From assembly GCA_021513695.1 (NCBI GenBank), contig CP084166.1:1536001-1600000 (forward strand): a stretch of DNA of 64,000 nucleotides, written 5' to 3'. The DNA is from Candidatus Heimdallarchaeum aukensis (GTDB taxonomy: Archaea; Asgardarchaeota; Heimdallarchaeia; Heimdallarchaeales; Heimdallarchaeaceae). The notes under the pieces are model-generated. The model was not told the DNA's origin, ran no database searches, and saw only the letters and a list, made by a program, of their open reading frames with translations. Below are positions 4,584 through 61,572 of the stretch, piece after piece; the stretch's first letter is position 1, and every line of letters begins with the position of its first letter. The position numbers and the translations under genes are program-made.

Positions 4584-4652
4584 TTTATCACCATTTTATT
4601 AAGTTACATATTATTTTAAAACTATTCGTATAAAAGCAATAACTTATTTCTG

Positions 4653-18586: not shown

Positions 18587-18703
18587 ATATTTTTTCTTTT
18601 TTTTTAATTATCTTCTTTTTTTAAACCTTTGTGGTCTCTGAACAAAATTTATAAACTTAGTTTCACTTTTCTTAACAATTAACATAATTTTGAGGTAATA
18701 GAA

Positions 18704-19126: not shown

Positions 19127-19128
19127 AG

Positions 19129-42271: not shown

Positions 42272-43138
42272 TTACACAAAAACTGATCGTAATTTGTAAA
42301 CTATACTAGAAAATGAAAGAACTTTTTTTCTACGAAGAATAGCTTCTCTTGTAAAAAGATCTACATAAGCAAAAAAACCATTTACTAAAGGACCAGGATT
42401 AATAAGCATAATATTTTTTTCAGTTTGAATAGCTTGTATTTCATGAATGTGCCCACAAAAAACAAAATCAAACAATAATGATTCAAAAATAAAAGAGGTG
42501 ATTTCTTGATTTCCTGCGTGATAGTTTCTTGAAGGAATTAGATCAATATGTGTATTCTTGGGGGGTTCATGGAAAAGACCAATAAATAGTTTATTTTCAT
42601 TCTTCTTTTTAAGAAGAAGAGCTTGTTCTTTTAGTTTAAGTAAATCTTTTCTTATAATGCTTATGTCTCTATTTGTAGGTGTTTGAACAGATGAGTATTC
42701 AGCTTTTTGGCAATACCCATACCCTAAAACAATAAATTTGTCATGCTCAACAATGCTTGATTCGATAAAAATTAAATTCGAATTTTGTTCTGTTTGTTTT
42801 TTAATATATGTAATTACTTCAGGAATATCTGTATTTCCGTGTGTAAAGAACACAGGTTTATTTAATCCACGCAGAAAATTCAGAATTTTCTTGGTTGTTT
42901 GTAATTGAAAATCAACAAATTCCTTATATTTTTCTCCAAATACAAGTTCCATGTATTTTTTTCTACTAATTCTTTTATATTTGATAATTGATTGAAAAAT
43001 AAGAGGTATACAAATAGTTCCTGCTATGTCTCCAGCAATAAAAATCACATCAACCTCTTCTAGTTCCTTTCTTAATCGTCTTAATAACTTTAATGACCCA
43101 TGAATATCCGCTATAACGATAGCTTTCAACTTACTCAC
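42272..43138 (-). CDS. Calcineurin-like metallophosphoesterase
   Basis: IADIHGS, AGDIAG, THGNTD and GHIHE motifs. Overlaps the end of hutH by 8 nt on the same strand. Confidence 0.7.
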   Translation of the reverse strand: MSKLKAIVIADIHGSLKLLRRLRKELEEVDVIFIAGDIAGTICIPLIFQSIIKYKRISRKKYMELVFGEKYKEFVDFQLQTTKKILNFLRGLNKPVFFTHGNTDIPEVITYIKKQTEQNSNLIFIESSIVEHDKFIVLGYGYCQKAEYSSVQTPTNRDISIIRKDLLKLKEQALLLKKKNENKLFIGLFHEPPKNTHIDLIPSRNYHAGNQEITSFIFESLLFDFVFCGHIHEIQAIQTEKNIMLINPGPLVNGFFAYVDLFTREAILRRKKVLSFSSIVYKLRSVFV

Positions 43139-44663
43139 CAGAAATTGAGAGTAATTCTTCTTCTGTAAATTTTAGTAGGCCCCCTGTCTTTACTTGTTCA
43201 ATAACCCAATATACATCCTCATCATATCGTCTATCATTAGCAATAGGCGGTATTTTTTTTCTGATGTGATTATAGATTTTCATGTTCACTGGTGAGAGTT
43301 TTCTCTCTCCTCGAAATTCCAAAGCTTGACATGCAGTAAAAATTTCTATCGCAATCATTTGTGAGACTATATCTCTTATTTTGTAAACTTTTTTACTAGA
43401 AGTTAACCCCATACTTACATGGTCTTCTTGATCAGCTGAAACAGGTGTATTATCTATCGATGCAGGAGTGCTTAAAATTTTATTTTCTGCTGATAAAGCA
43501 GCGTCAGCATATTGAAGAATCATCAATCCAGAATTTAATCCTGGTTTCCCTGTTAAAAAGGCTGGAAGACCAGAAAGCGCGGTATTTAATAATTGATTAA
43601 CTCTTCTTTCAGATATTGTTCCTAATTCGGTTAAAGCAATAGAAAGAAAATCCATGACTAAAGAAATTGGTTCTCCATGAAAATTTCCACCAGAGAAAGC
43701 ATGGTTATGGTTTACTGAAATTAAAGGATTGTCAGTAGCAGAATTCATTTCTACTTCTACTACACTCTTTACATATCTAATAGTATCGAGAACTGCCCCA
43801 TGAACTTGAGGAGAACAACGTATAGAATAGGGATCTTGTACTCTCGGAGCTTTAATGTGTTCAATATCACTTCCTTTTATAAGTTTTAACACTGTATCAG
43901 CAAAGTCAGATTGCCCCTTATGTTTTCTATTTTGCATGATGAAAGGAGAAAAAGCATCAGTATTTCCATGAAGTGCTTCTAAAACTAAAGCAACCGCTAT
44001 AGCTGAATGTTTCAAAATATTTAAAGAATCATAAATCGTATGAGCTGCAAAAGAAGTAAGAACATGAGTACCATTAACTAAGGAAAGACCTTCTTTTGAT
44101 ACAGGTGAGATAGGTTCTAGCCCCAACTTTGCTAGAATTTCTTTGCCTGTTAAAATTTGATCATTGTATTTTACTTTTCCTTCTCCTATTAACACACTAG
44201 CAATATAGGATAAAGGAGCGAGATCACCACTTGCGCCTAAAGAACCAATGCTAGGAACCAGAGGAATAACGTTATTATTTACTAAATCCACATAAAGCTC
44301 GACAGTGGATAAACGTATTCCACTGCTACCTTTACAATAAGAATTAATCGCAATAACCATAGCTCCTTTAACTATTTCATCAGGAAGAAACTCACCAAAA
44401 CTTATGCTATGAGAACGAATAATATTTTCTTGTAACTGTGATTGCTCATTAATTGAAATAAGTACATTTGCTAGTTTTCCAAAACCTGTTGAGACACCGT
44501 AGATGGGATCGTTTTCGGCGATTAAATTTTCAATTGCATTACGTGATTCTCTTATTCTTTCTTTACTGTCATCACTTAGTCGGATTTTATATCCTTGTCT
44601 TGTTATTTTGATTAAATCGTTTATATTTAGAGAGTTTCCATTAAGGACAATAAAATTGCTCAT
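43131..44663 (-). CDS. hutH: Histidine ammonia-lyase
   Basis: GSLGASGDLAPLS contains the ASG triad that forms the MIO cofactor; about 510 aa. Confidence 0.85.
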   Translation of the reverse strand: MSNFIVLNGNSLNINDLIKITRQGYKIRLSDDSKERIRESRNAIENLIAENDPIYGVSTGFGKLANVLISINEQSQLQENIIRSHSISFGEFLPDEIVKGAMVIAINSYCKGSSGIRLSTVELYVDLVNNNVIPLVPSIGSLGASGDLAPLSYIASVLIGEGKVKYNDQILTGKEILAKLGLEPISPVSKEGLSLVNGTHVLTSFAAHTIYDSLNILKHSAIAVALVLEALHGNTDAFSPFIMQNRKHKGQSDFADTVLKLIKGSDIEHIKAPRVQDPYSIRCSPQVHGAVLDTIRYVKSVVEVEMNSATDNPLISVNHNHAFSGGNFHGEPISLVMDFLSIALTELGTISERRVNQLLNTALSGLPAFLTGKPGLNSGLMILQYADAALSAENKILSTPASIDNTPVSADQEDHVSMGLTSSKKVYKIRDIVSQMIAIEIFTACQALEFRGERKLSPVNMKIYNHIRKKIPPIANDRRYDEDVYWVIEQVKTGGLLKFTEEELLSISGE

Positions 44664-46218: not shown

Positions 46219-47490
46219 ATGTTCCATGAAGAAAAAGAAGGAATTATTATTGCAAATATAGCTGAGCTTTTTTTAGGCGAAGTAAAAAAATATGAACCAT
46301 CTTATCCCAACGAGAAACCTGACGCTCTCGTTATAAAAAATGGAAAGATAGAAGCTATTGGTGAAACTGGGAGAATACTAGCTGACTACAATAGAACAGA
46401 TTATGAATATATTAATTGCAATAATGAACAGAGTGTTTGCCCAGGTTTTGTAGATTCCCACACACATCTTGTATTTGCTGGAAATAGATCCCATGAGCTA
46501 GAAATGAAAATTCAAGGAATAAGTTATAGTGAGATAGCTGCGAAAGGAGGAGGAATAAATTATACAGTTAGAGAGACTAGAAATGCATTAAAAAAAGAGT
46601 TGAAAGAAGCTGCATTAAAGGTATTAAATAAAATGTTATTACACGGAACAACAACTATTGAAGCAAAATCAGGATATGGATTAAACCACGAAAGTGAACT
46701 AAAAATATTGGAAGTAATTAATGAATTAAATGAAGAACATCCGATTGAGATAGTTCCAACATTTTTAGGCTGCCATATCAAACCTGAGGACTTCATGGGT
46801 AACACATATGAATACATCGAAACAATGATGTATTTGCTCCCTGAGATAAAGAGAAGAAATTTAGCTGAATATGTAGATATATGGACTGATTTAGGAGCAT
46901 TTACAGTAGAAGAATCAGAATTTTTCCTTAAAGAAGCAATAAAGCAGGGATTCAAAATAAGAGTTCATGCTGACGAAATGGACAATGTTGGAGCAGGAAT
47001 CATGGCTGCAAATCTGGGAGCAGTATCAGCAGATCATTTACTAAAATCGGAAGCTATAACTGCAGAAGCAATGGCAGAGAAAGAAGTTGTAGCAAATTTA
47101 TTACCAGGAACACCATTTGTTTTGATGAGTAAAAAATATGCTAATTATAGAATGTTTAGAGATGCAAATTGTACAGTTGCATTGAGCACCGATTTCAATC
47201 CCAATTGTTATATTCTAAACATGCAAACTATCCTAACACTGGGAACATATATGATGAAGATGACACCAAAAGAAGCTCTGAAAGCAGGAACATTTGGTGG
47301 AGCAAAAGCACTTAATAGAGAAAAAAGGATTGGATCTTTAGATCTAGGAATGCAAGCAGATGTCCTAATCTTAGACGTACCCTCAATAGACGATTTAGTT
47401 TATCAATTTGGAACAAATAATGTTTCAACAGTAATAAAGGAAGGAAAAATACTAGTAAAAGATAGAGAGATAGTTACAGAAACAAAATAA
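46219..47490 (+). CDS. hutI: Imidazolonepropionase (amidohydrolase)
   Basis: GFVDSHTHLVFAGNR metal-binding HxH motif; about 420 aa; the other Hut enzymes are present nearby. Confidence 0.8.
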   Translation: MFHEEKEGIIIANIAELFLGEVKKYEPSYPNEKPDALVIKNGKIEAIGETGRILADYNRTDYEYINCNNEQSVCPGFVDSHTHLVFAGNRSHELEMKIQGISYSEIAAKGGGINYTVRETRNALKKELKEAALKVLNKMLLHGTTTIEAKSGYGLNHESELKILEVINELNEEHPIEIVPTFLGCHIKPEDFMGNTYEYIETMMYLLPEIKRRNLAEYVDIWTDLGAFTVEESEFFLKEAIKQGFKIRVHADEMDNVGAGIMAANLGAVSADHLLKSEAITAEAMAEKEVVANLLPGTPFVLMSKKYANYRMFRDANCTVALSTDFNPNCYILNMQTILTLGTYMMKMTPKEALKAGTFGGAKALNREKRIGSLDLGMQADVLILDVPSIDDLVYQFGTNNVSTVIKEGKILVKDREIVTETK

Positions 47491-47833: not shown

Positions 47834-49498
47834 ATGTATGGGCAAGGCCAAGTACCAGTGATAGTCCTAAAAGAAGGAACAGAAAGGACAAAAGGAAAAG
47901 ATGCACAGAGAAATAACATAATGGCAGCACAAGTAGTAGCTGAAACAATTAAGACCACCCTAGGTCCAAAGGGTATGGATAAAATGCTCGTTGACGGGCT
48001 AGGAGATATTTTGATATCTAATGATGGTAAAACAATTCTTGACGAAATTGACGTCAAGCATCCTGCAGCAAAGATGATGGTTGAAGTAGCAAAAGCTCAA
48101 GACCAAGAAACAGGAGATGGTACCACTTCAAGTGTTACCCTTGCTGGAGAATTGCTAAAAAACGCTACTGATCTTTTAGACAAACAGATTCATCCTTCAA
48201 TAATTGTTGAAGGCTATAAAGCAGCTGCTGAAAAAGCTGAAGAGATCTTACAAGAATTAGCCAAGCAATTTGATCCTTTTGGCGATGAACAAATTCTGTT
48301 CAAGATTGCTAATACTTCATTAAACAGCAAATCTGTATCTGGCGCTAAAGAGCACATTGCTCAACTAGCAATTAACGCTGTAAAGAAGGTTGCAGATGAA
48401 GATAATGGCAATCATATCGTTGATCTTGATAACATTAAGATTTTACAAAAATCAGGTAAGAGTTTAGCCGAGTCTGAACTTATTGAAGGAGTAATTATTG
48501 ATAAAGAAGTTGTTCACCCTGGTATGCCAAAGCAAGTTAAAGAGGCAAAGATTCTTCTACTCAATCAAAACATTGAGATCGAAAAAGGAGAATTTGACAA
48601 AGAAATTAGAATTAGCGACCCTCTACAGATGCAAAGTTTCTTAGAAAATGAAGAAGCTATGTTAAGAGAGATGGTTGAGCAGATAGCTACTACAGGAGCC
48701 AATGTTTTAATCTGTCAGAAAGGAATCGATGACATGGCCCAATATTTCCTTGCAAAGAAGGGTATTATGGCTGTTCGTCGCGTTAAAAAATCTGACATGG
48801 AGAAACTTTCACGTGCTACAGGAGGAAAAGTAATTAGTAATTACAAAGACGCTAAAGCTGAGGATCTTGGCTATGCTGGACTAGTTGAAGAAGTCAAAAT
48901 TGGTGATGATGATCACGTTTTTGTTCGTGAATGTAAGAATCCTAAAAGCGTTTCTATTATTCTCCGTGGAGCTACAAAATACGTTACTGATGAAGCTGAA
49001 CGTGCTCTTCATGATGCTCTATGTGTAGCTCGTAATGCTGTTGAAGACAAAACCTATTTACCTGGTGGAGGAGCTACTTATCTTGAGCTTGCTAAACAGC
49101 TAAATGTTTTCGCTGAAGAGTTCAAAGACAAACGTCAAATGGCAGTTAAGGCTTTTGCTCAAGCTCTTGAGGTTATTCCTACCACTTTAATTGAAAATGC
49201 AGGTTTAGATCCTATTTCAATCATGAACGAATTAAAAGCTGCACATGCTTCTGAAAACGGTGTTTCTATGGGTCTAAATCTTTTTAAGAATGGTCAAGTT
49301 CTTGACATGTTTGCTGAAGGAATAATTGAACCTCTTCGAGTAGTTAGTCAAGCTGTTAAGTCAGCTTCTGAATCAGCTATAATGATTCTAAGAATCGATG
49401 ATGTAATTGTCGCTAAGGCTTCCTCTCCACAAGGTCCACCTGGCGGTGGTGGAATGGGCGGCATGGGCGGCATGGGCGGCATGCCTGGTATGATGTAA
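47834..49498 (+). CDS. ths: Thermosome subunit (group II chaperonin)
   Basis: [16 protein letters not shown] and VPGGGA motifs, and a C-terminal [16 protein letters not shown] tail. Confidence 0.9.
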
Positions 49499-49577: not shown

Positions 49578-49904
49578 TTGTTCCTCTCTCACAATGTAGA
49601 TATGACCAAGCAAAATAAATCAAAATTTGATCGCATTACTTGGATTGTCACAGAGTTGATTATTGGCTTTGCTGCCGCAGGTTATGGAGTTTATGGTTTA
49701 TTTAAAGGTTTACCAGAACAAAAGATTGTCCACATAATTATTGCTTCTATTGGTGGGGTTCTATTATTACTTGCTTTTAGTCAGATTCTTATATTAAGAG
49801 GTAAAAAGAAAAGAACTAAAGAAATCAAGCATTGCCCCAAATGTGGAGCTGAAGTCCAAAAAGGAGATGAACACTGCAGAAAATGTGGAGAAAAATTAAA
49901 ATAA
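49578..49904 (+). CDS. Small membrane protein with a C-terminal zinc-ribbon (CPKCG...CRKCG)
   Basis: Two hydrophobic helices followed by a CxxC-x10-CxxC ribbon. Confidence 0.45.
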   Translation: MFLSHNVDMTKQNKSKFDRITWIVTELIIGFAAAGYGVYGLFKGLPEQKIVHIIIASIGGVLLLLAFSQILILRGKKKRTKEIKHCPKCGAEVQKGDEHCRKCGEKLK

Positions 49905-49922
49905 TAATTATTTGCTCTTTTC

Positions 49923-50309
49923 TTATTTCCAAACTTTTAGAAACTCTGGCATTTCTTCGAAGTTTACAATTGGTATTGATACGGGCCATCTAGCATCACT
50001 TACTTCATCAGCGAATTCGAACTCTTCCTTTGGACTTGTTCTATATCTTATAAATGATCCTGCAGGAGGTTCATCATTTTCTATCCAGACCACTATTGGA
50101 AGAGCTCTTAAGTTATAGTATCCTAAGCTAGTGTTGAACATGAAAAAAATATTCCTATTCGCTTCTTTTTCATAAAAATATCCAATATAACCAGTCACTC
50201 TATCTGATAAAGTTGAAGCAATGAGTTTTATTATATCTGATAATCCCTTAAGTTTTATTGACGCAGCTTTTTTTATATTATCTACTATTTCATCCATATT
50301 AACCACCAA
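49923..50309 (-). CDS. Hypothetical 128-aa protein of unknown family
   Basis: No motif recognised. It lies immediately downstream of the orphan ATPase c-subunit gene on the same strand. Confidence 0.35.
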   Translation of the reverse strand: MVVNMDEIVDNIKKAASIKLKGLSDIIKLIASTLSDRVTGYIGYFYEKEANRNIFFMFNTSLGYYNLRALPIVVWIENDEPPAGSFIRYRTSPKEEFEFADEVSDARWPVSIPIVNFEEMPEFLKVWK

Positions 50310-50328
50310 AAATAAAAAAATAAGAAGT

Positions 50329-50634
50329 TTAGAAGATTAATAGAATAGCTACAAGTAGACCATAAATTGCTACTGCTTCAATAAGCACGATGAACAAGAA
50401 GATTTTACCAAAAATCTCTGGTTTTTCAACTAATGCGCCTATACCAGCCGAACCAGCTGAACCCATTCCGAGTGCACTACCGATTCCTGCTAGACCTATT
50501 GCTAGAGCAGCGCCTATAGGTCTCATATCTCCTTCTTCACCTAGAGGAATTTCTGCAGCGAATGTACCTTTTGCGGTTATAATGATAAGCGCAACAATTG
50601 CTAGTAGTCCAATAATCAGATCATTTTTTTTCAT
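50329..50634 (-). CDS. A/V-type ATP synthase proteolipid (subunit c/K)-like protein, orphan copy
   Basis: GAALAIGLAGIGSALGMGSAGSAGIGALVEKPEIFGKIFLFIVLIEAVAIYGLLVAILLIF matches the A-type c-subunit hairpin with the carboxylate in IEAVAIYG. The likely start is the internal ATG at 50634; the ORF track starts at 50730. Confidence 0.6.
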   Translation of the reverse strand: MKKNDLIIGLLAIVALIIITAKGTFAAEIPLGEEGDMRPIGAALAIGLAGIGSALGMGSAGSAGIGALVEKPEIFGKIFLFIVLIEAVAIYGLLVAILLIF

Positions 50635-50834
50635 AATACGTCCCTTTTTCACGTGTTTAAAATTACAAATCATCGTTTCTTTATTAGTTTTTTGTATTGG
50701 ATACTTTTTAATATTGAATACTTTTTTCAATAAAAAAGTTTTAAGAATAACATATTTTATATTTCATGTATAAGTAAGAAAGCAAACCTATAATAAATGG
50801 GAAAACTTTATGATTATTAAGAAAAGATTCTATC

Positions 50835-51452
50835 GTGAGTAAAATGTTTGGAAACTTTATGAGATGGTTATTAGGAACTCAAAAATCAAGTAGAGACCAT
50901 ATAGTAAACCTTAAACTAACTATTCGCAGACTAGAAAGAGCTCAAAGGAAACTGGAGAGAGATGAATCAAGAATACAACTAAAAATGCGAACAGCTATTC
51001 AGCGTGGTGATTTAGAAGGTGCCCGTCTTTATGCTACAGATATTGTTCGTTCTCGTAAGTGGGTTTTAGGTTACCAGCGTTTAGTTTCTCGTATTAATGG
51101 TCTTATTTTTAAACTAGAACGAGCTGATTCTGCTGCTAACTTGGCAGCTGAAATGCATTCTATTGCAGGAGCTCTTCGACAAGCTAACGCTCAATTAAAT
51201 GTTCCTGATTTAGATCATGTTATTCAAGACATGGAACGTAGTATTGATGGAATTGAGGATTCAACTGAAACAATTGAAGATGGAATTGATGATCTTCTTA
51301 TTGCTGATACCGACCCAGCTGAAGTCGATAGGTTAATTGACCAAACAGCTACAGAGATGGGTGTTAGTGTAGGAGGAGAACTCCCTTCAGTAAGCGCTGT
51401 TGCAACAGACGATCTCGAGGAAGAGATTCAAAAATTAAGGAAAAAAGAGTAA
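50835..51452 (+). CDS. ESCRT-III (Snf7/CHMP family) protein
   Basis: 205 aa. N-terminal basic helices (LKLTIRRLERAQRKLERDE...), an acidic C-terminal half and a terminal LEEEIQKLRKK MIM-like helix. Confidence 0.75.
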   Translation: MSKMFGNFMRWLLGTQKSSRDHIVNLKLTIRRLERAQRKLERDESRIQLKMRTAIQRGDLEGARLYATDIVRSRKWVLGYQRLVSRINGLIFKLERADSAANLAAEMHSIAGALRQANAQLNVPDLDHVIQDMERSIDGIEDSTETIEDGIDDLLIADTDPAEVDRLIDQTATEMGVSVGGELPSVSAVATDDLEEEIQKLRKKE

Positions 51453-51467
51453 ATATGAGGTGTTTAT

Positions 51468-52127
51468 ATGGGTATGAAAAACTGGTTATTTGGAACCAAA
51501 CGCAAGGATGATGCTGAAGCTTTAGCTACACTCAAAGCTCAGATCAATCGATATGAGCACGAGTCCCGCAATTTAGAACGTCAAGCTGATGAACAAAAAT
51601 CTTTAGCTGCTAAGATGTTAAAGTCGGGTAATAAAGCTGGAGCTAAACAAGCTCTTAAGCGTCGAGCTATTTATATGAAACGTTTAAATCAGGTTCAAAA
51701 TATGCTAATGAACCTTCAGAGTCAGATTGATAGTATTCAAACTGCAACCTCTACTGTTGAAACAGTAAAGGCAATGGAGTTAGGTACGAAAGTTGTCAAG
51801 ACGAAGATGCAAGAAGTTGATGTAGAGAAAACTGAACGTGTAATGGATGAAGTTATGAGTCAACGTGATGAAATTGAAATGATGACAGAAGCTTTATCTG
51901 ATACTGCACTAAGTGAGAGCATTTTAGATTACGAAGATGATGTCGCAATTGATGATCAACTTGCTCAATTAGAAGCCGAGATGAATCTTGGTAAAACAGA
52001 AGAATTACCAGATCTTTCAGATCTTCCTTCAACTCCATCAGAAAAACCGACTGAAAAAGAAGAAGATACTTCTGACCTTGAAGCCGAATTAGCTTCTCTT
52101 AAGAAGAAGTTAAGTGATGACAAATAA
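51468..52127 (+). CDS. ESCRT-III (Snf7/CHMP family) protein, second paralog (Vps20/32/60-like; begins MG)
   Basis: 219 aa. Same basic-then-acidic helical hairpin organisation, ending ELASLKKKLSDDK. Lies directly upstream of Vps4. Confidence 0.75.
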   Translation: MGMKNWLFGTKRKDDAEALATLKAQINRYEHESRNLERQADEQKSLAAKMLKSGNKAGAKQALKRRAIYMKRLNQVQNMLMNLQSQIDSIQTATSTVETVKAMELGTKVVKTKMQEVDVEKTERVMDEVMSQRDEIEMMTEALSDTALSESILDYEDDVAIDDQLAQLEAEMNLGKTEELPDLSDLPSTPSEKPTEKEEDTSDLEAELASLKKKLSDDK

Positions 52128-52254: not shown

Positions 52255-53400
52255 TTGAGCGCGCAAGGACTGATTGAACACGCACGTAAATTTGCAAAAA
52301 AAGCTTATGAACTTGATAAGGCAAAACAATACAATGAGGCAATACCACTTTATCTCGACGCTGCAGAAGCTCTAATGAAAGCAATAAAATTTGAAAGAAA
52401 TCCACAAGTGGGAAAGACATTAAAGAAAAAAGCAGAGATGTACATTGAACGAGCAAAAGATCTAAAAGAAATTATTGAGAAAAAAGCTGAAAAGGGGGCA
52501 GAAACAGGGTCAGACGAAGAATCTGATAAATTAGAAGGAGCAATTAGCGATATCATAGTTACAGAAAAGCCATCAGTTACTTTGGATGATATTGCAGGAC
52601 TAGAAGAAGCAAAACGGAATCTTCGAGAAGCAATAGTGTTACCTCTTGTAAGACCAGACTTATTTAGTGGTGCAAGAAGACCATGGAAAGGGATTTTACT
52701 TTTTGGCCCCCCAGGATGTGGAAAAACTCTTTTAGCAAAAGCAACAGCTGCAGAAGTAGAAGCTACGTTTTTTAATGTTAGTGCGTCCGCGGTTATATCC
52801 AAATGGTTAGGAGAATCTGAAAAATTAGTTAATACATTATTTAAAATTGCTCGTGAAAGGCAACCAAGTATAATTTTCATAGATGAAGTAGATGCTCTTA
52901 CCGGAGCACGTGGTGGCGAGCATGATGCTATGCGCAGAGTTAAAACTGAATTATTAACTTCTATGGATGGTTTATCTAGCTCTGCTCAAGATCGTCTTGT
53001 AGTTATTGGGGCTACTAACCTTCCTGAGTCTATTGATGGAGCTTTTCGCCGTCGTTTTGAGCGTCGTATTTACATTAAGCTTCCAGATTTTGAAGCGCGT
53101 AAAGCTATCTTTCAACTAAATGTCAAAGGAGTGGACTTAGCTCCCGATGTTGATTTTGAATCTTTAGCAGAGATTACAGAAGGTTATTCTGGAGCAGATA
53201 TTGCTATGGTTTGTCGCGATGCTATTATGACTCCTATTCGTGAACTTGATTTATCAGGAGACATTCATGACCCCAATATTAAAGCCAGACCAGTTACACA
53301 AAAAGATTTTCTTGAGTCTATTCAGTCAGTTAATCCTTCTGTAAGTGCAGAAGAAATCGAGAAATATGAGAAATGGAATGAAGAATTTGGTTCAGCGTAA
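52255..53400 (+). CDS. Vps4-like AAA+ ATPase with an N-terminal MIT domain
   Basis: MIT-like three-helix N-terminus (AKKAYELDKAKQYNEAIPLYLDAAEAL), Walker A GPPGCGKT, Walker B IIFIDEVD and a second region of homology; 381 aa. Confidence 0.85.
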   Translation: MSAQGLIEHARKFAKKAYELDKAKQYNEAIPLYLDAAEALMKAIKFERNPQVGKTLKKKAEMYIERAKDLKEIIEKKAEKGAETGSDEESDKLEGAISDIIVTEKPSVTLDDIAGLEEAKRNLREAIVLPLVRPDLFSGARRPWKGILLFGPPGCGKTLLAKATAAEVEATFFNVSASAVISKWLGESEKLVNTLFKIARERQPSIIFIDEVDALTGARGGEHDAMRRVKTELLTSMDGLSSSAQDRLVVIGATNLPESIDGAFRRRFERRIYIKLPDFEARKAIFQLNVKGVDLAPDVDFESLAEITEGYSGADIAMVCRDAIMTPIRELDLSGDIHDPNIKARPVTQKDFLESIQSVNPSVSAEEIEKYEKWNEEFGSA

Positions 53401-53707
53401 AAGGGTGTTTTTATGATTTACCTTTTTACGTAAGTTTTTCGCACTCGGTCTTTCAAGGGAGAAAACAGGAGTTTCATCACTTGATAACTCAACCACAACA
53501 TACAATGAAAGGAAACGTGGTTAAGACAGACGTCATACACGAATCGTGGGAATCATAAAGAAGGAAAAGAAAAAAGTAAGAAAGGAGAAAAGAAAGGAGG
53601 TTATCTCCTTCTTTATTCTACTTTCTTTTCTTTCCTTCACTCCACGAGAGACGAAAAAACAAACAAATAATCCTCTAACAAGAGAGAATGTAAGTTTATA
53701 TTTTCAT

Positions 53708-55161
53708 CTACTGGGGCTGCAACCAATGGCTGAGCCCTTGGCAAACAGTGAAATGAGTGAGACTAAATTTACGACCAGTGAGTAGATCAGTAATAGTTGT
53801 TGCACGGGGGCGGAAAAGAGAACTAAGGAGCAGACGAGCGATATTCATTGCTCCTGTTAGATCAGAGTGGAAGGTGTAATTGCAAGAGGGACAATAAACT
53901 AACCCTCTAACGGGGCGGGTAACTTTTTTTCCGCAACGGGCACAGTGAGATGATGTTCCTCTTTCCTCTATCGTCAGAATTCGGTGAGAGGGAAAACCTC
54001 TAAGTATTAGTGCACGACGGATAAAAGAAAGAACAAGAGCATAGTTCCACTGGTGAAGTTTTCTTCGTGACTTGCGATTAGTTACTCCCTTATTTTTTTC
54101 TCGTCGAATGTATTTAGGATAACCTATAACAACGAAAAGATTATAGATCCGAGCATAAACCTCTATTGTCCACACGATAGCACTTACAAATTGATTGATA
54201 TACGCTCGTCTGACGTTTCTATACCTCCGACGGAGACGTTTGAGAAAACGGTAAACTTGGTGTTTTTTACCCGATTGGTCGTTTAAAGCTGCTTTCCTCT
54301 GAAGACGGGAAAGTTTGAGTTTATATCGATGATTAACTTTATTCCACTGTTTGGTATACTAGAACTTTATTTCTTTACTTGTTACCTTCTTTTTCGGGGT
54401 CAGTAGCACTTCTACCGCAGGAATGTTTATCCCTAGATCTATTCCCAGCACAGCTGGGGGAAGAAAAGAAGAGTCAGAAGAAAGATTATCTCCCTGAAGG
54501 AAAGAAGAAGGAAGAACTTTTGAATGAAAATATATCCACCATTCACGTGTAGAACGTTTGTATCTTATTTCTAAACTTTTTACTCTTTCTTTAATTCTTT
54601 TTGATGAAACTCGCTCATCTCTAAAGGTAACCACAATCGCTGATGAAAACGTGTTTTTCTTTTCCACCTATCTAACGAGTCTCGTATTCCTACCCACCAA
54701 CGAGAAAGAGTGTTATTCTTATCTTTTGGTAGATGGACGAGGATGAACCTTTTTTTATTAATTAATTGTCTTCTTGCTCTCTTTCTTGGAGGACGAGTAT
54801 TGTTAGGTCTATATCCTTGCTCATATAGTTGCACAGCTATATCTCTACATTCTTGAAACTCATCGTGAGAACAATAGGGAAACATTTTCTTCATATCGTG
54901 AGGAACAGTCGTTCTTCTTTCTTCCTCTTTTTTTACTCTCGAGGTCGTTAATGTCAATTCGTCTAATTTTCCTTTATGTACTTTTATTTTCCCTTCTTTT
55001 GCTTTAATACCTATTTTTTTTCTGTTATGGTGTATAATTCTCACATACTTTTCTATTATTCTAGTATCTCTCCCCGTTATTCTCCTTAACTTTTCTTTTT
55101 TTCTCGTCGTCAATACTTCATTCTTCACTCTCACCTTTAACGTTTTGACGACGTCCTCCAT
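53708..55161 (-). pseudogene. Degenerate TnpB (IS200/IS605 OrfB; OMEGA-type RNA-guided nuclease family) split into at least three ORFs by frameshifts
   Basis: N-terminal part LKVRVKNEVLTT...; C-terminal zinc-finger block CARCGKKVTRPVRGLVYCPSCNYTFHSDLTGAMNIARL. Three overlapping minus-strand ORFs (54580-55161, 54359-54667, 53708-54175). GC content is well above the surroundings. Confidence 0.65.
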
Positions 55162-55329
55162 CCTTTTTTTCTCCTCTTATTTTACTCTCTCTTTTTTTCT
55201 ATTTTTTTCTCTTCTTTTACTTCTTCTCTTCCTCATTATACTTTTTTTCCCTATAAAAAGTCCTTTCTTTTCTTTTTTTCTCATTATTCTTCCTCAATTT
55301 TTATATAAAGTTATGTAAAATAGTAAATC

Positions 55330-56130
55330 ATGGCTACAATGGAAAAACAAAAAGATAATGAATTTGAGCAAATTGATCTTGAAAAATTGAAAGAAGAAAA
55401 GAAAATATCAGAAGATAAGCTTAAGCTTATTGAAGCCAGTATTAAGGGATTAAAAGTTTCAGAAGAAGAACTGAAGTCCACGAAACCTATTGTTAGAGAA
55501 GAAGCAAGATTAGAACTAACAGAAGACACAAAGACGAAGCTAATTAAAGAATTTGAGCAAAGTTTACCTGATTGGGTTAACAAGCCTTGGATGTATGTCA
55601 CCCCAAAAAAGGCAAATCAAGTTGAGTCTTGGTTAGACAGTTGGTCATCAGTCATGCTTGATTATACAAAGAAATTTGTTATTCATATTGTTAATGTCAA
55701 TTCTCTTAGAGAAACTTATCCTTTTTGTAATAAGAAAATAAGAAAAGAACTTACCATCGATCAAATTCGTGATATCATCGATTTTCTTGAAACAAAGGGT
55801 TTTGCTCTTTGGATAAATGATAGGACAAAATTCTTTGAGAAACTTTTTGCAAAGATACTTGGAAAACCTTTAACAAAAAAGATCCGTGCAAAGATAGAAT
55901 GGAAAACAAAAGAAGAATTTGCTGAAGATTTACTTAAATGGATGATTGAAACCGGTAGAGTAGTTGAAGTTCACTCTTTATATGATTTAACAAAATATGA
56001 ACAACCCTGGTCTTCTTTACCTTCAGATGATTTAATCCATGTATGCAATTTACTCGTAGAAAAAGGTTCTGCTAGATGGTTAAATAGAGAAAGAACTATA
56101 ATTTCCTTTGAAGCAACAAAGGTATTCTAA
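55330..56130 (+). CDS. ESCRT-II Vps25-like protein (tandem winged-helix) with an N-terminal charged coiled-coil extension
   Basis: About 170 aa C-terminal region with the PWMYVTPKKANQVESWLDSW...IRDIIDFLETKGFALWI pattern resembling Vps25 WH domains. Sits in the ESCRT locus. Confidence 0.5.
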   Translation: MATMEKQKDNEFEQIDLEKLKEEKKISEDKLKLIEASIKGLKVSEEELKSTKPIVREEARLELTEDTKTKLIKEFEQSLPDWVNKPWMYVTPKKANQVESWLDSWSSVMLDYTKKFVIHIVNVNSLRETYPFCNKKIRKELTIDQIRDIIDFLETKGFALWINDRTKFFEKLFAKILGKPLTKKIRAKIEWKTKEEFAEDLLKWMIETGRVVEVHSLYDLTKYEQPWSSLPSDDLIHVCNLLVEKGSARWLNRERTIISFEATKVF

Positions 56131-56183: not shown

Positions 56184-56621
56184 ATGTTTAAAAATTATAT
56201 ATTGAATAGACTTTTGAGATTTATGTCTTTAGACGATGAAGAATTACAAAGGATTCGAGAAAAAAAGGCACAACAACTTAGGCAAATTTTAGAACAGAGA
56301 AAATCAAAAATGGAACAACTTAAACAAGAGGAAACAGCGCCAAAAAGCATTACAAAAGAGGACAAGTATCGTTTAATGAATTATTTTCTAACTGATGACG
56401 CTTTTTCTTATTGGAAGAGTCTATATGAAAATCCACAAAAGCATAATACAGCAGAAACAATTTTCATTAATTTGCTCTATCTGATTAAGATTGGTTTTAT
56501 GGAAGGAAAACTTATCTCTCTTCTAGGAATTAAAAAATTAGAAAGAAAAATAGATAATATTCCTTCTAAAATCACAATAAAGAGAAAAGGAGAAAAAGAA
56601 AGATCCAAAGTTTTGGATTAA
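56184..56621 (+). CDS. PDCD5/TFAR19-like putative DNA-binding protein
   Basis: N-terminal LDDEELQRIREKKAQQLRQILEQRK matches the PDCD5 family opening motif, and the C-terminal LISLLGIKKLE...ITIKRKG is consistent with it; 145 aa. Confidence 0.4.
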   Translation: MFKNYILNRLLRFMSLDDEELQRIREKKAQQLRQILEQRKSKMEQLKQEETAPKSITKEDKYRLMNYFLTDDAFSYWKSLYENPQKHNTAETIFINLLYLIKIGFMEGKLISLLGIKKLERKIDNIPSKITIKRKGEKERSKVLD

Positions 56622-56697: not shown

Positions 56698-56934
56698 ATG
56701 AAGTTGAGTATTGTTACCGCAATAGGAGGAGGTCTTTTAGAATTAGATGTTGATAGCCATCAAACAATTGCACAACTTAAAAGAGAAGTTTCAAGAATTA
56801 AAAAGATACCTGCAAATACAGTTATTTTGGTTCATCATGGTCAACAGTTAGATGATGGTGAAACAATTAAGAGTTGCGGATTACAAGAAGGAGATAAACT
56901 CTATCTAATTGCAAGAACAAAAGGTGGACTTTAG
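56698..56934 (+). CDS. Ubiquitin-like beta-grasp protein ending ...KGG-L
   Basis: HGQQLDDGETIKSCGLQEGDKLYLIARTKGG aligns with ubiquitin [30 protein letters not shown]. 78 aa, with a single residue after the di-Gly. Confidence 0.8.
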   Translation: MKLSIVTAIGGGLLELDVDSHQTIAQLKREVSRIKKIPANTVILVHHGQQLDDGETIKSCGLQEGDKLYLIARTKGGL

Positions 56935-57009
56935 CTTTTCTATTTCAAAATTTTTTTAGAAGAATAGAAACTGTTTTATTACTTCTAAAAGATATTTTTG
57001 TGAAAGTGG

Positions 57010-58014
57010 ATGTCTAAAGAAGGTAGATATGCGAGACAGACTCTCATACCTGGTTGGAATCAGAAGAAACTCAACAAATCAACAGTTATTATTGTTGGTG
57101 TGGGAGCAATTGGATCATATGTATCAACGATTTTAGCTTCTTCAGGAGTAAAAAATCTCATTCTAATTGATTTTGATACTATTGAAATCTCTAATCTTAA
57201 TCGTCAATTACTATTTCGGGATGGAGATATTGGAAAATCCAAATCTGAAATTGCAGCTATGCGATTATCGGAACTAAATCCAGATATTAACATTACCTTT
57301 CATCATAAGAAGATGCAAGATTTACCTATTTCTATTTACAAAAAAGCAGATGTCATTGTGGCTTGTCTTGATACCTTCATTGGAAGAAGATGGATAAATT
57401 CACTTGCTGTAAAAATAAACAAACCTTTAATTTTAGGTGGAATGTTTGCTTTTCTAGGAGATGTTCAAGTTGTTTTACCAAAAAAAACTGCTTGCTTTGA
57501 TTGTCAACCTTTAGTTGCAGAAAGAGAACTTGCGCAAGCTTGTACTCCATTCGGAGAAGAAAGGAAGAAAAACAGAGAAGAAAAAGAGGATGAAGCGAAA
57601 TTACCATCTGTAGCCACATTGTCTGCGATTATCGGAGGAATTATGGCACAAGAAGCCTTAAAACTTCTTTTAGACATAGGTGAACCAATCAAGAATTATC
57701 TTTTCTATGATGGATTACATAATGCAACAACAATAATTGAACTTGCAAGAAGAAAAAAAGATTGTCCAACTTGTGGAGAACTATATGAGTTGGAACAAGT
57801 CGAATTTGTGGTAAATAAAGATAATACCGTCAAAGAACTATTAATCCAATTAGGTTTACAATTCGGACTTGAGAGCCCAGACATTATGATTAAAGGGAGG
57901 ATACTCCCTCACGATTCAAAAATCCAAGAACTAGGTATAAAAAATAACATGAAGGTTTTTGTAATGGACAAAAATTTAGCTTCACCAATCAAGTTAAAGT
58001 TAAAGATTGAGTGA
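57010..58014 (+). CDS. E1-like ubiquitin-activating enzyme (ThiF/MoeB/UBA fold) with a C-terminal extension
   Basis: Rossmann GVGAIGSYV with IDFDTIEISNLNRQ; CFDC...CPTC zinc tetrad; about 70 extra C-terminal residues. Lies immediately downstream of the ubiquitin-like gene. Confidence 0.8.
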   Translation: MSKEGRYARQTLIPGWNQKKLNKSTVIIVGVGAIGSYVSTILASSGVKNLILIDFDTIEISNLNRQLLFRDGDIGKSKSEIAAMRLSELNPDINITFHHKKMQDLPISIYKKADVIVACLDTFIGRRWINSLAVKINKPLILGGMFAFLGDVQVVLPKKTACFDCQPLVAERELAQACTPFGEERKKNREEKEDEAKLPSVATLSAIIGGIMAQEALKLLLDIGEPIKNYLFYDGLHNATTIIELARRKKDCPTCGELYELEQVEFVVNKDNTVKELLIQLGLQFGLESPDIMIKGRILPHDSKIQELGIKNNMKVFVMDKNLASPIKLKLKIE

Positions 58015-58025
58015 AAAAAGAAAAT

Positions 58026-58751
58026 TTAGGTGTGTGACAGTCCAGGGAAATAATATTTAGTTCCTTCAGCATAGGAACTATCTACTCTTGCTATACCATT
58101 TTCTTCAAAAAATGATAAGCAACGATTAATTCTTTCCTCTGCCCACCCTGTTCTAAGTAATAGATCTTCTTTTGTTACAAATCCTGTTCTTGAAGCAATG
58201 TTTAATATTACATCATGGTCGGGACTGAATTCAACAGGAGCAAATTCTACTAGTTTCACTCCAGATTCTAAAACTTTGAAAGGTGGAATTAATTTTGAAT
58301 TTATGAGTTTCTCTAATGAACGATACAAGTCATCAATTGTAACTAGTTTTCCAGGTCTAGTTTTATTTAATTGGGTAAACAATTCACCTACAGACATTAT
58401 ACCTCCATTTTCTTCTATAAGTTTTTGACCCAAATCCATGATTTCGTTTGCTAAAACATCATAGAAACCTTTTCCTGTTAATCTATCTTTTAGAGTTGGA
58501 GCTTCTTTCCATTCATATCTCCCTATTTCTGTAGGTAAGCCTAGTTCTTCTCGCAGGCCAGCAAGTTTTTCATAATATTCTTTATTTTCAACTATTTTAT
58601 CACCATATTTCTTTTCAAATTTCTTTAGTTGCTTTTTAACTTGTTTAATATTTTCCAACATTTGTTCTAATTCTTTTATCATTAATTCGGCTTCTTTAAC
58701 TTGGAAAGCTGACTTCACTTTTAATTTCTTTTCAATATCTCTTAAGCCCAA
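58026..58751 (-). CDS. ESCRT-II Vps22/Vps36 (EAP30-domain)-like protein
   Basis: N-terminal coiled coil followed by a tandem winged-helix region (GGIMSVGELFTQLNKTRPG...IDDLYRSLEKL) resembling EAP30. Confidence 0.55.
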   Translation of the reverse strand: MGLRDIEKKLKVKSAFQVKEAELMIKELEQMLENIKQVKKQLKKFEKKYGDKIVENKEYYEKLAGLREELGLPTEIGRYEWKEAPTLKDRLTGKGFYDVLANEIMDLGQKLIEENGGIMSVGELFTQLNKTRPGKLVTIDDLYRSLEKLINSKLIPPFKVLESGVKLVEFAPVEFSPDHDVILNIASRTGFVTKEDLLLRTGWAEERINRCLSFFEENGIARVDSSYAEGTKYYFPGLSHT

Positions 58752-58823: not shown

Positions 58824-59132
58824 TTAAAAAAGGAGAGGAAGTCTTCTAATCCACTCTTTAATTGAATTCATAAGCTTTTTAGATTCATTTGGAGGAAGAA
58901 AAGCTGCTAGTTTGTCTTTATAGTTTTTGTATAGTTTTTGATAAACGCTGTCCATTTCATCAACAATTGAATCATTTACCAAATTGATTTTTTTAACAAG
59001 ATGTTTTATCTCTTCCAACTCTTCTAAGATGTATGAACAGTCAATTTTTATTTCTAAGAGATCCATCAACTCGAATAAACTATCTTTTGCTTTATTATAG
59101 GTATTTTCTAAAGATTTTCTCCTAGAAATCAT
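58824..59132 (-). CDS. Small helical hypothetical protein in the ESCRT locus (possibly a Vps28-C/Vps37-like ESCRT-I accessory)
   Basis: 102 aa, predicted all-helical. Lies between the UEV/Vps23-like and EAP30-like genes on the same strand. No motif recognised. Confidence 0.3.
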   Translation of the reverse strand: MISRRKSLENTYNKAKDSLFELMDLLEIKIDCSYILEELEEIKHLVKKINLVNDSIVDEMDSVYQKLYKNYKDKLAAFLPPNESKKLMNSIKEWIRRLPLLF

Positions 59133-59168: not shown

Positions 59169-60638
59169 CTACATATCTTTTAAAATTCGTCTAAATTCGT
59201 TTAACCATCTTGATGCTTGGAATTCTAGTTTTTCACAATCGTCTTCATTTATTATTTCACTTGGTTTATAATTTGAAAGAATGTCTTTCCAGTTTTTCAT
59301 ATCGCTGAGCATCCAATGATCTTGCGGAATAGATGGAAACGAGTGCAAAACATGAATTAGCTCTTCTACGTCAGCCAACAGCAAATCAGCTCGTGCGACT
59401 GATTTAAGCCTTGTTAGATCAATTAATTCAATTGCAGCTGAAACAAAATCAGCTGTTTTTACAGGCATTTTCTTTAAGGATTCAAATGGTATCATTTCAA
59501 CATCTTTAGTTCCAGTTCCTTCAGCCATTTGTAGCAATCTCATTCCTTTGTCAAATCTATTTAGCAGATTTTCTTGCTCTATAAACGAATCGAGATCAAA
59601 TCCACCTAATTGTTCCAGTTTCATTCTTGTTTTGAAAACTGTTCTTATTAGTGATCTTAACTGCTTTTTATATGCAACTTGCTCAATCTCACCATTTTCA
59701 TACCCTCTCGCTAAATTATCTAATGTCACTATTGCTGCATATAAATCAGCTTCAAAATCTAATCTTTTATCTAAATCACTAGGCATTACTTGTCCTCCAA
59801 CATTTTCTAAATAAGCTAATTTTTTATTTGTCTTATAACTTTCCACTGAATATTTTCTATAAAGTTTCAAGTAATCAACACTTGAAAGATCTCCATCATC
59901 AAATTTCTCATTTAATAGCTCTAATAAGTCATTAGATGCTCTTGAACTTGCTTTTAAATCATCGGTTACAGAAATTGTAAGTTCTTTTAATGAATGTGAA
60001 GGCTCAGCTTTCTTGATTAGAGCAGCTCTTTTTTCCTCAATTTGTTTATTTAGTTCGTTTATCTGCTGCTGATACGCTTCTATCTCTGCTTCAATAGTAC
60101 TTTTTTCTATCGATGTTTGACTCCGTTCATTAAAGGATGGTACACTTTGCTTACGTACAGTGTGACGTGAAACTGTTCTTGGTTTCATCGGTTGAACTAC
60201 AGATCTAGACACACTCCTAGCTGTAGACATATGCTTTGTTCTTAATGGTCTTGCAGGAACATTAGCAAATAATCGCCGAATATCATTTATAACTTGATAA
60301 ATATGATAGCGTGGTTTCCATTGAGCGAGTATTTGCAAACTAAGAAAGTCATTGTCGTCAACATTAGGATGATTTACTTTAGGAGTAATTTCAACTTGAG
60401 GAGGAATTCTTGGGAACTCTGGAGAGATATATATTGTAGCATAAACAGTTATCTTCGTTCCTTGAATTATCCCTACAGGGCCTTTCCACTTTCTTAAATT
60501 GCCTCCTACTGGCTCAAATCCTTCAACATTATTATAAATTAATTGCATCTCATTAGCAAGAATCTGATCTAGAGAAATTTGTCTCACCTTTACTCTTCTA
60601 TTATTGTTATAAACTTCAAAGTTTAAAAAATATTGCAT
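59169..60638 (-). CDS. UEV-domain (ubiquitin E2 variant) protein with a central coiled coil; ESCRT-I Vps23/Tsg101-like
   Basis: The N-terminal UBC fold has the HPNV motif, but the catalytic Cys position reads FLSLQIL rather than ICLDIL, so it is an inactive E2 (UEV). A long coiled-coil region and a C-terminal helical domain follow. Confidence 0.65.
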   Translation of the reverse strand: MQYFLNFEVYNNNRRVKVRQISLDQILANEMQLIYNNVEGFEPVGGNLRKWKGPVGIIQGTKITVYATIYISPEFPRIPPQVEITPKVNHPNVDDNDFLSLQILAQWKPRYHIYQVINDIRRLFANVPARPLRTKHMSTARSVSRSVVQPMKPRTVSRHTVRKQSVPSFNERSQTSIEKSTIEAEIEAYQQQINELNKQIEEKRAALIKKAEPSHSLKELTISVTDDLKASSRASNDLLELLNEKFDDGDLSSVDYLKLYRKYSVESYKTNKKLAYLENVGGQVMPSDLDKRLDFEADLYAAIVTLDNLARGYENGEIEQVAYKKQLRSLIRTVFKTRMKLEQLGGFDLDSFIEQENLLNRFDKGMRLLQMAEGTGTKDVEMIPFESLKKMPVKTADFVSAAIELIDLTRLKSVARADLLLADVEELIHVLHSFPSIPQDHWMLSDMKNWKDILSNYKPSEIINEDDCEKLEFQASRWLNEFRRILKDM

Positions 60639-60729: not shown

Positions 60730-61272
60730 TTACTTTCTATTTTTGACTAAAAGTGTAGCTAGTTTCACAAATGCTTCTTGAACATGTTCTCCTGTAAGTG
60801 CACTTGTTTTTATGAAATCCAAACTATTGATTTTGTTTTGTAATGATTTACATTCATCATCTGATACAGCAATTTTATCTTCTAAATCATTTTTATTTCC
60901 AACTAAGATGGTAAGGGTGTTCTTTCCACAGTTTTTAACAAGTTCAGAGTTCCATTTCTCTAGATCAGTTAGTGTTGAATTCCTGGTTAAATCGAAAACC
61001 ATCAGTGCTGCTTTTGCTCCTTTAAAGAAAGTATGTCTTATAAACCTAAATCTATCTTGTCCTGCTAGATCCCAAATTGAAAGAGCTACAACTGTATTGT
61101 CCTCTAATGTAACAAATTTCTCACTCGGTTCCATACCTATTGTCATCAGATAACTTTGTTCAAAACGATTATGAACAAAACGTTGTACAAGAGATGTCTT
61201 TCCTACAGCGGCGGCACCTAATAGAAGTATTTTGAAATTGAAATCAGGACGAATTGAACGCATTATTCTCAA
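60730..61272 (-). CDS. Ras/Rab-like small GTPase
   Basis: G1 GAAAVGKTSL, G3 WDLAGQDRF, G4 GNKNDL, G5 SAL; 180 aa. Confidence 0.85.
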   Translation of the reverse strand: MRIMRSIRPDFNFKILLLGAAAVGKTSLVQRFVHNRFEQSYLMTIGMEPSEKFVTLEDNTVVALSIWDLAGQDRFRFIRHTFFKGAKAALMVFDLTRNSTLTDLEKWNSELVKNCGKNTLTILVGNKNDLEDKIAVSDDECKSLQNKINSLDFIKTSALTGEHVQEAFVKLATLLVKNRK

Positions 61273-61275
61273 CTT

Positions 61276-61572
61276 TTACATTTTTTTTGCTTTTACAAGC
61301 TCTTCTTTTAAACTTTTAAGATAGTATGTTTCAAAATTTTCTTCTGCGCGTTTAATAGTAGTAAGAGAAATACAGAGATCTAATATGAATTCATATTGTT
61401 CTTTTTTCTCTTTCTGTGGTTTGAATGCTTTAAATTTTTTTAATAAATACTCGGCTAACTTTGACGCTTCTTTTTTTGTTAATGTTCCTTGCTCATATAA
61501 ATTAATAATTAACTCCATTTTCTCTATAGTAATATCATTGTTAATCTCTTTTAACGACAAAATTTTACTCAT
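61276..61572 (-). CDS. Small helical hypothetical protein, apparently co-operonic with the small GTPase (4-nt spacing)
   Basis: 98 aa, K/E-rich. No motif recognised. Confidence 0.3.
   Translation of the reverse strand: MSKILSLKEINNDITIEKMELIINLYEQGTLTKKEASKLAEYLLKKFKAFKPQKEKKEQYEFILDLCISLTTIKRAEENFETYYLKSLKEELVKAKKM

Follow-up and report, generated by a model that had tools for sequence, protein, structure and literature searches.

Ubiquitin and a minimal E1-like enzyme with a predicted ubiquitin-fold domain in the ESCRT gene cluster of Candidatus Heimdallarchaeum aukensis

Does an archaeal ubiquitin gene that is directly followed by the gene for a ubiquitin-activating enzyme (E1), with no gene for a conjugating enzyme (E2) beside it, belong to an E1-to-E2 cascade of the eukaryotic type or to a modifier system that works without an E2? 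This question is raised by a locus of Candidatus Heimdallarchaeum aukensis, which lies at positions 56,698 to 58,014 of a stretch of 64,000 nt from contig CP084166.1 (positions 1,536,001 to 1,600,000 of the forward strand; assembly GCA_021513695.1). This whole stretch is called the window in the following, and coordinates refer to it unless another contig is named. The locus consists of the gene for a ubiquitin precursor of 78 residues (56698..56934, plus strand) and, after a gap of 75 nt on the same strand, the gene for an E1-like ubiquitin-activating enzyme of 334 residues (57010..58014) with one adenylation domain and a predicted C-terminal ubiquitin-fold domain (UFD). Our data make it likely that these two genes provide the ubiquitin and the E1 of the Heimdallarchaeaceae system that joins ubiquitin to the endosomal sorting complexes that are required for transport (ESCRT), and that they serve a canonical, eukaryote-like E1-to-E2 cascade, the genes of which are dispersed.

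The open reading frame (ORF) at 56698..56934 matched the Pfam ubiquitin family (PF00240) with E = 1.1e-13 and 51.2 bits, the curated cut-off being 25.4 bits, and is therefore assigned to this family. It scores as ubiquitin proper, unlike ThiS/MoaD-type modifiers. Human ubiquitin shows 30% identity to the protein and aligns with it as far as the di-Gly. The C-terminal end reads ...LIARTKGGL: the di-Gly is formed by residues 76-77 (56923-56928), and one extra Leu codon (56929-56931) precedes the stop codon. In an alignment of human ubiquitin and 12 orthologues, G76, G77 and R73, the counterpart of Arg72 of human ubiquitin, were nearly invariant, and the sequence suggests the C-terminal di-Gly as a candidate conjugation site. 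Since the identical 78-residue product is encoded in four independent assemblies (L001-L004), the terminal Leu is real and not the result of a sequencing error. The preliminary description of this DNA, made from the letters alone, had named a ubiquitin homolog of 78 residues with one Leu behind the di-Gly, and both the Pfam match and the alignment bear this out.

Across the ubiquitin orthologues the di-Gly is followed by no residue at all or by L, F, Y, S, YC, TR or DL; at the level of sequence, the tail is short and unconstrained. Many eukaryotic ubiquitin precursors likewise carry short tails. Adenylation by E1 enzymes acts on the free carboxylate of the Gly, and for this reason the Leu should have to be removed before activation. 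This expected need for trimming, deduced from the chemistry of adenylation, agrees with results for Caldiarchaeum, where pro-ubiquitin with a tail of nine residues is inert toward its E1 until it is cut by an Rpn11/JAMM protease (PMC5654768). A Helarchaeial pro-ubiquitin with an SPKN tail past the di-Gly was also trimmed for reconstitution (bioRxiv 10.1101/2023.07.25.550441). An alternative view is that the Leu needs no dedicated processing, either as a neutral tail that is cleared by general carboxypeptidases or as part of a precursor that acts as a regulatory brake. The free variation of the tail among close orthologues would fit this view, and so would the Heimdall loci among the 63 loci that we fetched, which have no linked JAMM gene. 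We nevertheless consider it unlikely, given the established requirement of E1 enzymes for a free Gly carboxylate, the inert pro-ubiquitin of Caldiarchaeum, and the presence of a JAB gene within the cluster of another Asgard lineage.

The product of the second gene of the pair shows 100% identity to the ThiF family adenylyltransferase annotated for Candidatus Heimdallarchaeum aukensis, which is encoded on a chromosome of 3,081,793 bp. Residues 8-254 (57031..57771) match the Pfam family ThiF (PF00899) with E = 1.3e-64 and 218 bits and form the adenylation domain with its Rossmann fold. In 118 E1 orthologues, G30, G32 and G35 of the GxGxxG loop as well as N62, R65, Q66, K78 and D121 are invariant, as are the four Cys residues of a Zn tetrad, C162xxC165 (57493-57504) and C252xxC255 (57763-57774). 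The nearest sequences of solved structure are the active adenylation domain of Uba1 (5e-54) and UBA3 (4e-51), with ThiF and MoeB behind them. A full-length model was calculated with AlphaFold2 (AF2) from the alignment of 118 sequences, all of them Asgard orthologues, and without templates. It reached a mean predicted local distance difference test score (pLDDT) of 87.3. When this model was compared to the PDB by Foldseek, UBA3 was the first match (E = 8e-30); the whole UBA3 chain was covered, and the template modelling score (TM) normalised to the query was 0.65-0.72.

A further invariant residue in the 118 orthologues is Cys178 (57541..57543), which is part of the motif AQACTP and follows the first CxxC at a distance of 13 residues. 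It is located in a short crossover or Cys segment (about residues 168-200). Position and invariance make Cys178 the candidate for the catalytic cysteine that would form the thioester with ubiquitin. The HMMER alignments to Uba1 and UBA3 stop before this segment and thus gave no residue-level match between Cys178 and a known catalytic Cys. Canonical E1 enzymes are pseudo-dimers of an active and an inactive adenylation domain with a large inserted catalytic-cysteine domain, and these features are absent here: the enzyme is a single chain with one ThiF domain, and the chain re-enters the Rossmann fold just about 30 residues after the Cys motif. It is a minimal E1, like other archaeal E1-like proteins. 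Because of the single ThiF domain it probably acts as a homodimer.

Human UBA3, the catalytic subunit of the NEDD8 E1 (PDB 2nvu, 3gzn, 1y8x, 3fn1), is the best fold match for the full-length protein as well as for the isolated C-terminal domain, at a sequence identity of about 25%. The two proteins have in common an adenylation domain, a Zn site and the arrangement of a Cys after the CxxC followed by a C-terminal UFD. They differ in the catalytic-cysteine domain, which comprises about 70 residues in UBA3 and corresponds to a segment of about 30 residues in the H. aukensis protein. They also differ in their partners: UBA3 forms a heterodimer with APPBP1/NAE1, whereas no gene for a partner subunit is found near the H. 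aukensis E1, which is presumed to be a homodimer.

Which function could the C-terminal part of the enzyme have? The preliminary description had listed ThiF Rossmann and Zn-tetrad motifs and about 70 extra residues at the C-terminus; these motifs are present, and the extension past the ThiF match amounts to about 77-80 residues. The suggestion made there, that this extension forms a beta-grasp domain like the E2-recruiting UFD of eukaryotic E1s, also holds as far as the fold is concerned, and the extension is not predicted to be disordered. In the full-length model residues 263-333 fold into the order strand-helix-strand-strand-short helix-strand-strand (pLDDT 80-92), and residues 258-334 (57781..58011) modelled by themselves gave a confident beta-grasp with a pLDDT of 86.9. 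In a Foldseek search of the PDB with the isolated domain, all five matches below E = 1e-3 were UFDs of E1 enzymes, either isolated or as part of full chains. The UFD of UBA3 (3fn1_A) was at the top, with 1y8x_B and 2lq7 lower down; the UFD of the SUMO E1 in its Ubc9-bound form (5fq2_B, 4w5v_B) was also found, with 3ong_A lower down, and the UFD of the Arabidopsis thaliana E1 together with its E2 (6gum_B) appeared at rank 13 (E = 4e-3). TM values for the UFDs of UBA3, the SUMO E1 and the plant E1 were 0.66-0.78. The leading matches, from UBA3 and SAE2/UBA2, stem from structures in which the E1 was solved together with its E2.

Sequence comparisons gave ubiquitin-like matches as well. A profile of the domain finds tandem poly-ubiquitin chains and, with E values down to 4.6e-6, the ubiquitin-like (UBL) domains of RAD23; it matches single ubiquitin weakly (E about 0.03). 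Single-sequence Pfam searches gave sub-threshold matches to Ubiquitin_5, ubiquitin, E2_bind and UAE_UbL. The models thus support the view that the tail of the E1 is a beta-grasp UFD, and by analogy to the eukaryotic enzymes this domain is predicted to serve as a docking module for an E2.

This prediction is strengthened by the distribution of the enzyme. Database searches revealed 551 relatives of the E1 at E <= 1e-10. Nearly all of the best 120 of these have a length of 320-365 residues, and 95-100% of the query is aligned, so that these 120 proteins keep the C-terminal domain. The best relatives stem from Heimdall-, Kari-, Hod-, Njord-, Freya- and Thorarchaeota. In two lineages outside the Heimdall group (L005 and L006) the orthologous E1 is encoded by the final gene of a RING-Ub-E2-E1 operon, in one case with a JAB gene and ESCRT genes alongside. 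The E1s of these E2-adjacent operons have the same C-terminal domain and show 43-47% identity to the E1 of the window. A deeper Heimdall lineage has the gene order Ub-E1-Yip1-E2. The E2s encoded in all three loci contain the HPN...C motif. This linkage of E1 and E2 genes suggests that the UFD-bearing E1 was ancestrally the partner of an E2, and that the genes became dispersed in the Heimdallarchaeaceae. The domain is present where the E1 gene adjoins an E2 gene, and it should therefore predate the Heimdall gene arrangement.

We then have to ask where the E2 of H. aukensis is encoded. Pfam scans covered 62 ORFs of the window (of its 69 ORFs with 90 codons or more, 60 were included), and UQ_con was found solely in a fusion protein of 489 residues that combines a ubiquitin E2 variant (UEV) domain with Vps23 and Vps28; no E2 was found among these ORFs. 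The tblastn queries against all six frames of the 64-kb window comprised four E2s (three from Asgard archaea and human UBE2D2) as well as two RING proteins and one JAB protein of Asgard origin, and the UEV was the only match. These results uphold the statement of the preliminary description that the catalytically dead UEV is the sole protein with the ubiquitin-conjugating (UBC) fold in the window. RING and JAMM genes were found neither in the window, by Pfam and tblastn, nor in the fetched loci of the Heimdall lineage. The same description had envisaged an E2 immediately outside the window as a way to make the locus canonical; a closely related contig (L001) extends beyond the right end by about 6 kb and carries none in this part. 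The genome, however, does encode an E2.

A profile of Asgard E2s led to E2s of the Heimdallarchaeaceae, and one of these shares a cluster at 90% identity with UJG39738.1, a protein of 156 residues annotated as ubiquitin-conjugating enzyme E2 of Candidatus Heimdallarchaeum aukensis and encoded on the chromosome of 3,081,793 bp. It contains the motif FHPNFFNRRIC85VGVLG and, in the conserved helix at its N-terminus, an invariant Arg. The oddity that an apparent lack of an E2 would imply is consequently not supported: a bona fide E2 is encoded on the same chromosome as the E1, and its absence from the window is a matter of gene position only. The same E2 is present on a 23-kb contig of the H. aukensis type (L060), from a sequencing run that also contains the exact E1. 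On this contig the E2 gene (10001-10471) is flanked by genes of the queuosine/archaeosine type, a gene for a Zn-ribbon protein of 202 residues and RadA; no gene of the ubiquitin system was found near it on the 23 kb, and it appears as a stand-alone gene.

For the distance between the Ub/E1 genes and the E2 gene we turned to H. endolithica, which is the sister species, and to the relative CSMAG_1225. On the closed chromosome of H. endolithica the ubiquitin gene lies at about 1,707,416 and the E2 gene at about 1,876,002, which is a distance of about 168 kb. On a contig of 701 kb from CSMAG_1225 the positions are about 331 kb for the E1 and about 144 kb for the E2. The true E2 is conserved across the Heimdallarchaeaceae.

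Considering these data, the following course of events may be proposed. The precursor of 78 residues would shed the single residue behind the di-Gly. The E1, probably as a homodimer, would then adenylate Gly77 by use of its conserved ATP/Mg site and take over ubiquitin on Cys178 as a thioester, as the invariant residues suggest. The unlinked E2 (UJG39738.1) would dock with its N-terminal helix on the beta-grasp UFD, and ubiquitin could be passed to Cys85 of this E2. For this docking the fold is predicted, and the contact itself is proposed after eukaryotic UFD-E2 structures and on the E1-E2 complex of Caldiarchaeum. Ubiquitylated targets would be read by the cysteine-free UEV of the UEV-Vps23-Vps28 protein and handed on to ESCRT-II, ESCRT-III and Vps4.

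Four points weigh against this scheme. Docking is predicted from the likeness of the fold, and the identity of the E1 tail to eukaryotic UFDs is just 16-22%. The loop around Cys178 (residues 176-181) is of low confidence and flexible in the AF2 model. The E2 gene of H. aukensis is unlinked, and its product is a presumed functional partner of the E1 of the window. Finally, RING or JAB genes near E2 or Ub/E1 genes were found in just two of the 63 fetched loci, namely the two operons from outside the Heimdall group.

Could the pair work without any E2? In systems of the SAMP/UbaA and Urm1/Uba4 type the modifier is of the ThiS/MoaD type, the E1 has no UFD and often carries a rhodanese domain, and there is no E2 in the genome. 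By analogy, the E1 might transfer ubiquitin directly to targets, or the pair might function in sulfur carriage. The 64-kb window, in which no E2, RING or JAMM gene was detected, could be read in this way, and it is known that the E1 of Caldiarchaeum auto-ubiquitylates without an E2 (PMC5654768). The H. aukensis system differs from this type in every one of the features listed: its modifier matches ubiquitin by score, a rhodanese domain is missing from the E1 and a UFD-like fold is present in its place, and a true E2 that is conserved across the Heimdallarchaeaceae is encoded on the same chromosome. In addition, orthologous E1s are operon partners of E2s in other Asgard lineages. We consequently regard a function independent of E2 as very unlikely.

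Another very unlikely reading takes the beta-grasp domain not as a dock for an E2 but as a ubiquitin-like handle that would be bound by the UEV encoded nearby or by some other receptor of ubiquitin, so that the E1 would be tethered to ESCRT-I and ubiquitin activated where sorting takes place; the resemblance of the domain profile to UBL sequences, the neighbourhood of the E1 and UEV-Vps28 genes (about 1.2 kb apart in the window and 0.1-1.2 kb across the Heimdallarchaeaceae, the E2 gene being unlinked) and the binding of ubiquitin by Asgard UEVs (PMC9192718) would suit it, but the top structural matches are UFDs of E1 enzymes and not free ubiquitin, and the same domain is found in lineages in which the E1 adjoins the E2. 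The related idea that the beta-grasp was co-opted in the Heimdallarchaeaceae for binding of the cysteine-free UEV, be it as a partner of this UBC fold or by mimicking ubiquitin, comes from the fact that ubiquitin and E1 alone are kept in the ESCRT cluster, with the E2 gene about 170-190 kb away and no linked RING or JAMM gene. It is a long shot; if it were true, charged E1 would be parked on ESCRT-I, and ubiquitin activation would be directly coupled to the sorting machinery.

The dispersed E1-to-E2 cascade that we favour can be compared with archaeal systems that were studied experimentally. The E1-like enzyme of Caldiarchaeum subterraneum, for which the NEDD8 E1 served as modelling template, has a C-terminal ubiquitin-like domain and binds its E2 in a stable complex (Hennell James et al. 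2017, PMC5654768); the E1 of the window is a member of the archaeal E1-like family described there. An E1 with a C-terminal UBL domain and a pro-ubiquitin with residues behind the di-Gly are common to both organisms. In Caldiarchaeum, however, five adjacent genes encode ubiquitin, E1, E2, RING and Rpn11, and the propeptide has nine residues, whereas in the window just ubiquitin and E1 are adjacent, the tail has one residue, and the pair is embedded among ESCRT genes. Adjacency of the ubiquitin and E1 genes, as in an operon of the Caldiarchaeum type, is thus found, and the E2 differs by gene position only. For Helarchaeia, a cascade of E1, E2 and a RING E3 was reported to ubiquitylate UEV-Vps23 in vitro (Lu et al., bioRxiv 10.1101/2023.07.25.550441). 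That system resembles the one described here in the tie of an Asgard ubiquitin system to ESCRT genes and in the tail beyond the di-Gly; its E2 and RING genes lie next to the E1 gene in one operon, while the E2 gene of H. aukensis is distant.

The surroundings of the pair identify the locus as an Asgard ubiquitin-ESCRT cluster: besides ubiquitin, the region 50.8-60.6 kb encodes two ESCRT-III proteins, Vps4, Vps25, Vps22 and the UEV-Vps23-Vps28 protein. On the plus strand, two ESCRT-III genes (50835-51452 and 51468-52127; Pfam Snf7) are followed by Vps4 (52255-53400; MIT, AAA and Vps4_C) and by Vps25 of ESCRT-II (55330-56130; Pfam ESCRT-II, 6.6e-16). Directly upstream of ubiquitin lies a conserved uncharacterised ORF on the plus strand (56184-56621), which is listed with 145 residues and called with 130-132 residues in relatives, and which is found upstream of ubiquitin in L001-L004, L061 and L062. 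No Pfam family matched it even at E <= 5, and a PDCD5-like identity was dropped for this reason.

The genes beyond the E1 are on the minus strand. Vps22/EAP30 (58026-58751; Pfam EAP30, 1.4e-22) is separated from the UEV gene by a conserved ORF for a helical protein of 102 residues (58824-59132), which is kept in L061 and L062. Its lone Pfam match, to YtzH, is sub-threshold, and the protein could be an unrecognised small accessory subunit of ESCRT-I/II. The UEV-Vps23-Vps28 fusion of ESCRT-I (59169..60638, 489 residues) matched UQ_con (7e-12), VPS28 (1e-11), Vps23_core and UEV. Its UEV part with the UBC fold (roughly 60219-60563) has kept the HPN motif, and there is no Cys in residues 1-140; this cysteine-free UEV is likely a reader of ubiquitin and not an E2. 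The gene order is conserved in L001-L004, L061 and L062, which include H. endolithica and a more distant genome of the Heimdallarchaeaceae.

The published cluster of Heimdallarchaeota AB_125 comprises two ESCRT-III genes, Vps4, Vps25, Vps22, the UEV-Vps23-Vps28 fusion HeimAB125_14070 and the ubiquitin HeimAB125_14240 (PMC9192718), which is the same gene set; HeimAB125_14240, the ubiquitin used in the experiments of Hatano et al. 2022 (PMC9192718), belongs to the orthologue family of the window ubiquitin. AB_125 also has two cysteine-bearing true E2s with locus-tag numbers far from those of the cluster genes (PMC9192718), and one of these, HeimAB125_07740, has the motif HxN...RICVGVLGADWTPA, the same as the E2 of H. 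aukensis. AB_125 represents another species, its ubiquitin ends with GG in the supplementary file of the paper and not with GGL, and the window has an insertion between Vps4 and Vps25 as a further difference. In yeast two-hybrid assays, binding of ubiquitin to UEV was observed in every Asgard lineage examined, including Heimdallarchaeota (Hatano et al. 2022, PMC9192718). The Asgard ubiquitin-ESCRT cluster is also described by Lu et al. and, as cited in this literature, by Zaremba-Niedzwiedzka et al.

This insertion (53416-55329, about 1.9 kb) is missing from the near-identical metagenome contig L001, in which the gap between Vps4 and Vps25 is 11 nt. It contains fragmented ORFs of the TnpB/Cas12f type on the minus strand (53708-54175 with a Cas12f1-like TNB domain, 54359-54667 and 54580-55161) and looks like a decayed insertion sequence element that inserted between the two genes, and the ESCRT operon of this strain may be interrupted by it. 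Both ends of the cluster are bordered by further conserved genes. Beside the ESCRT-I gene, a gene for a Ras/Rab-like small GTPase of 180 residues (60730-61272, minus strand) and an ORF of 98 codons together occupy 60730-61572 (minus strand), and they are kept with the cluster in H. endolithica. In L061 a similar Ras-like GTPase gene lies upstream of ubiquitin. Upstream of the ESCRT-III genes, the region 49578-50730 contains an ORF for a proteolipid like the c-subunit of ATP synthase (50329-50730, minus strand), a Zn-ribbon ORF (49578-49904, plus strand) and an unknown ORF; since this trio is conserved in L001, L002, L061 and L062, it may belong to the cluster.

The window has a GC content of 28-38%, and its remainder mostly carries other functions. 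Genes between 7350 and 47490 and their neighbours serve housekeeping metabolism, among them genes for histidine utilisation (urocanase, 8990-10879; aromatic/histidine ammonia-lyase, 43131-44663; amidohydrolase, 46219-47490), a complete glycine-cleavage operon (17426-22066) and GMP synthase. The tRNA-splicing ligase RtcB (22207-25182, plus strand) has a length of 991 residues because its gene carries an intein: Intein_splicing covers residues 108-605, together with a weak match to a LAGLIDADG endonuclease. Archease is encoded at 37617-38045. Two tandem genes for peptidyl-prolyl isomerases of the parvulin type (4311-4937) and one for a thermosome subunit (47834-49498) are also present.

Our literature search found no relevant paper that pairs Heimdallarchaeum with ubiquitin. 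The gene family, the UFD-like domain, the tail of pro-ubiquitin and the separate E2 genes of Heimdall lineages are all published, and for this reason no new question arises from the locus. Evidence that ubiquitin-directed membrane sorting is older than eukaryotes comes centrally from Asgard ubiquitin-ESCRT clusters, and the locus described here adds another clean example from a closed genome, which shows the minimal layout of an E1 with adenylation domain, short Cys loop and UFD. Its practical value lies in a compact and fully sequenced set of components, consisting of ubiquitin, E1, the E2 UJG39738.1 and UEV-Vps28, for reconstitution.

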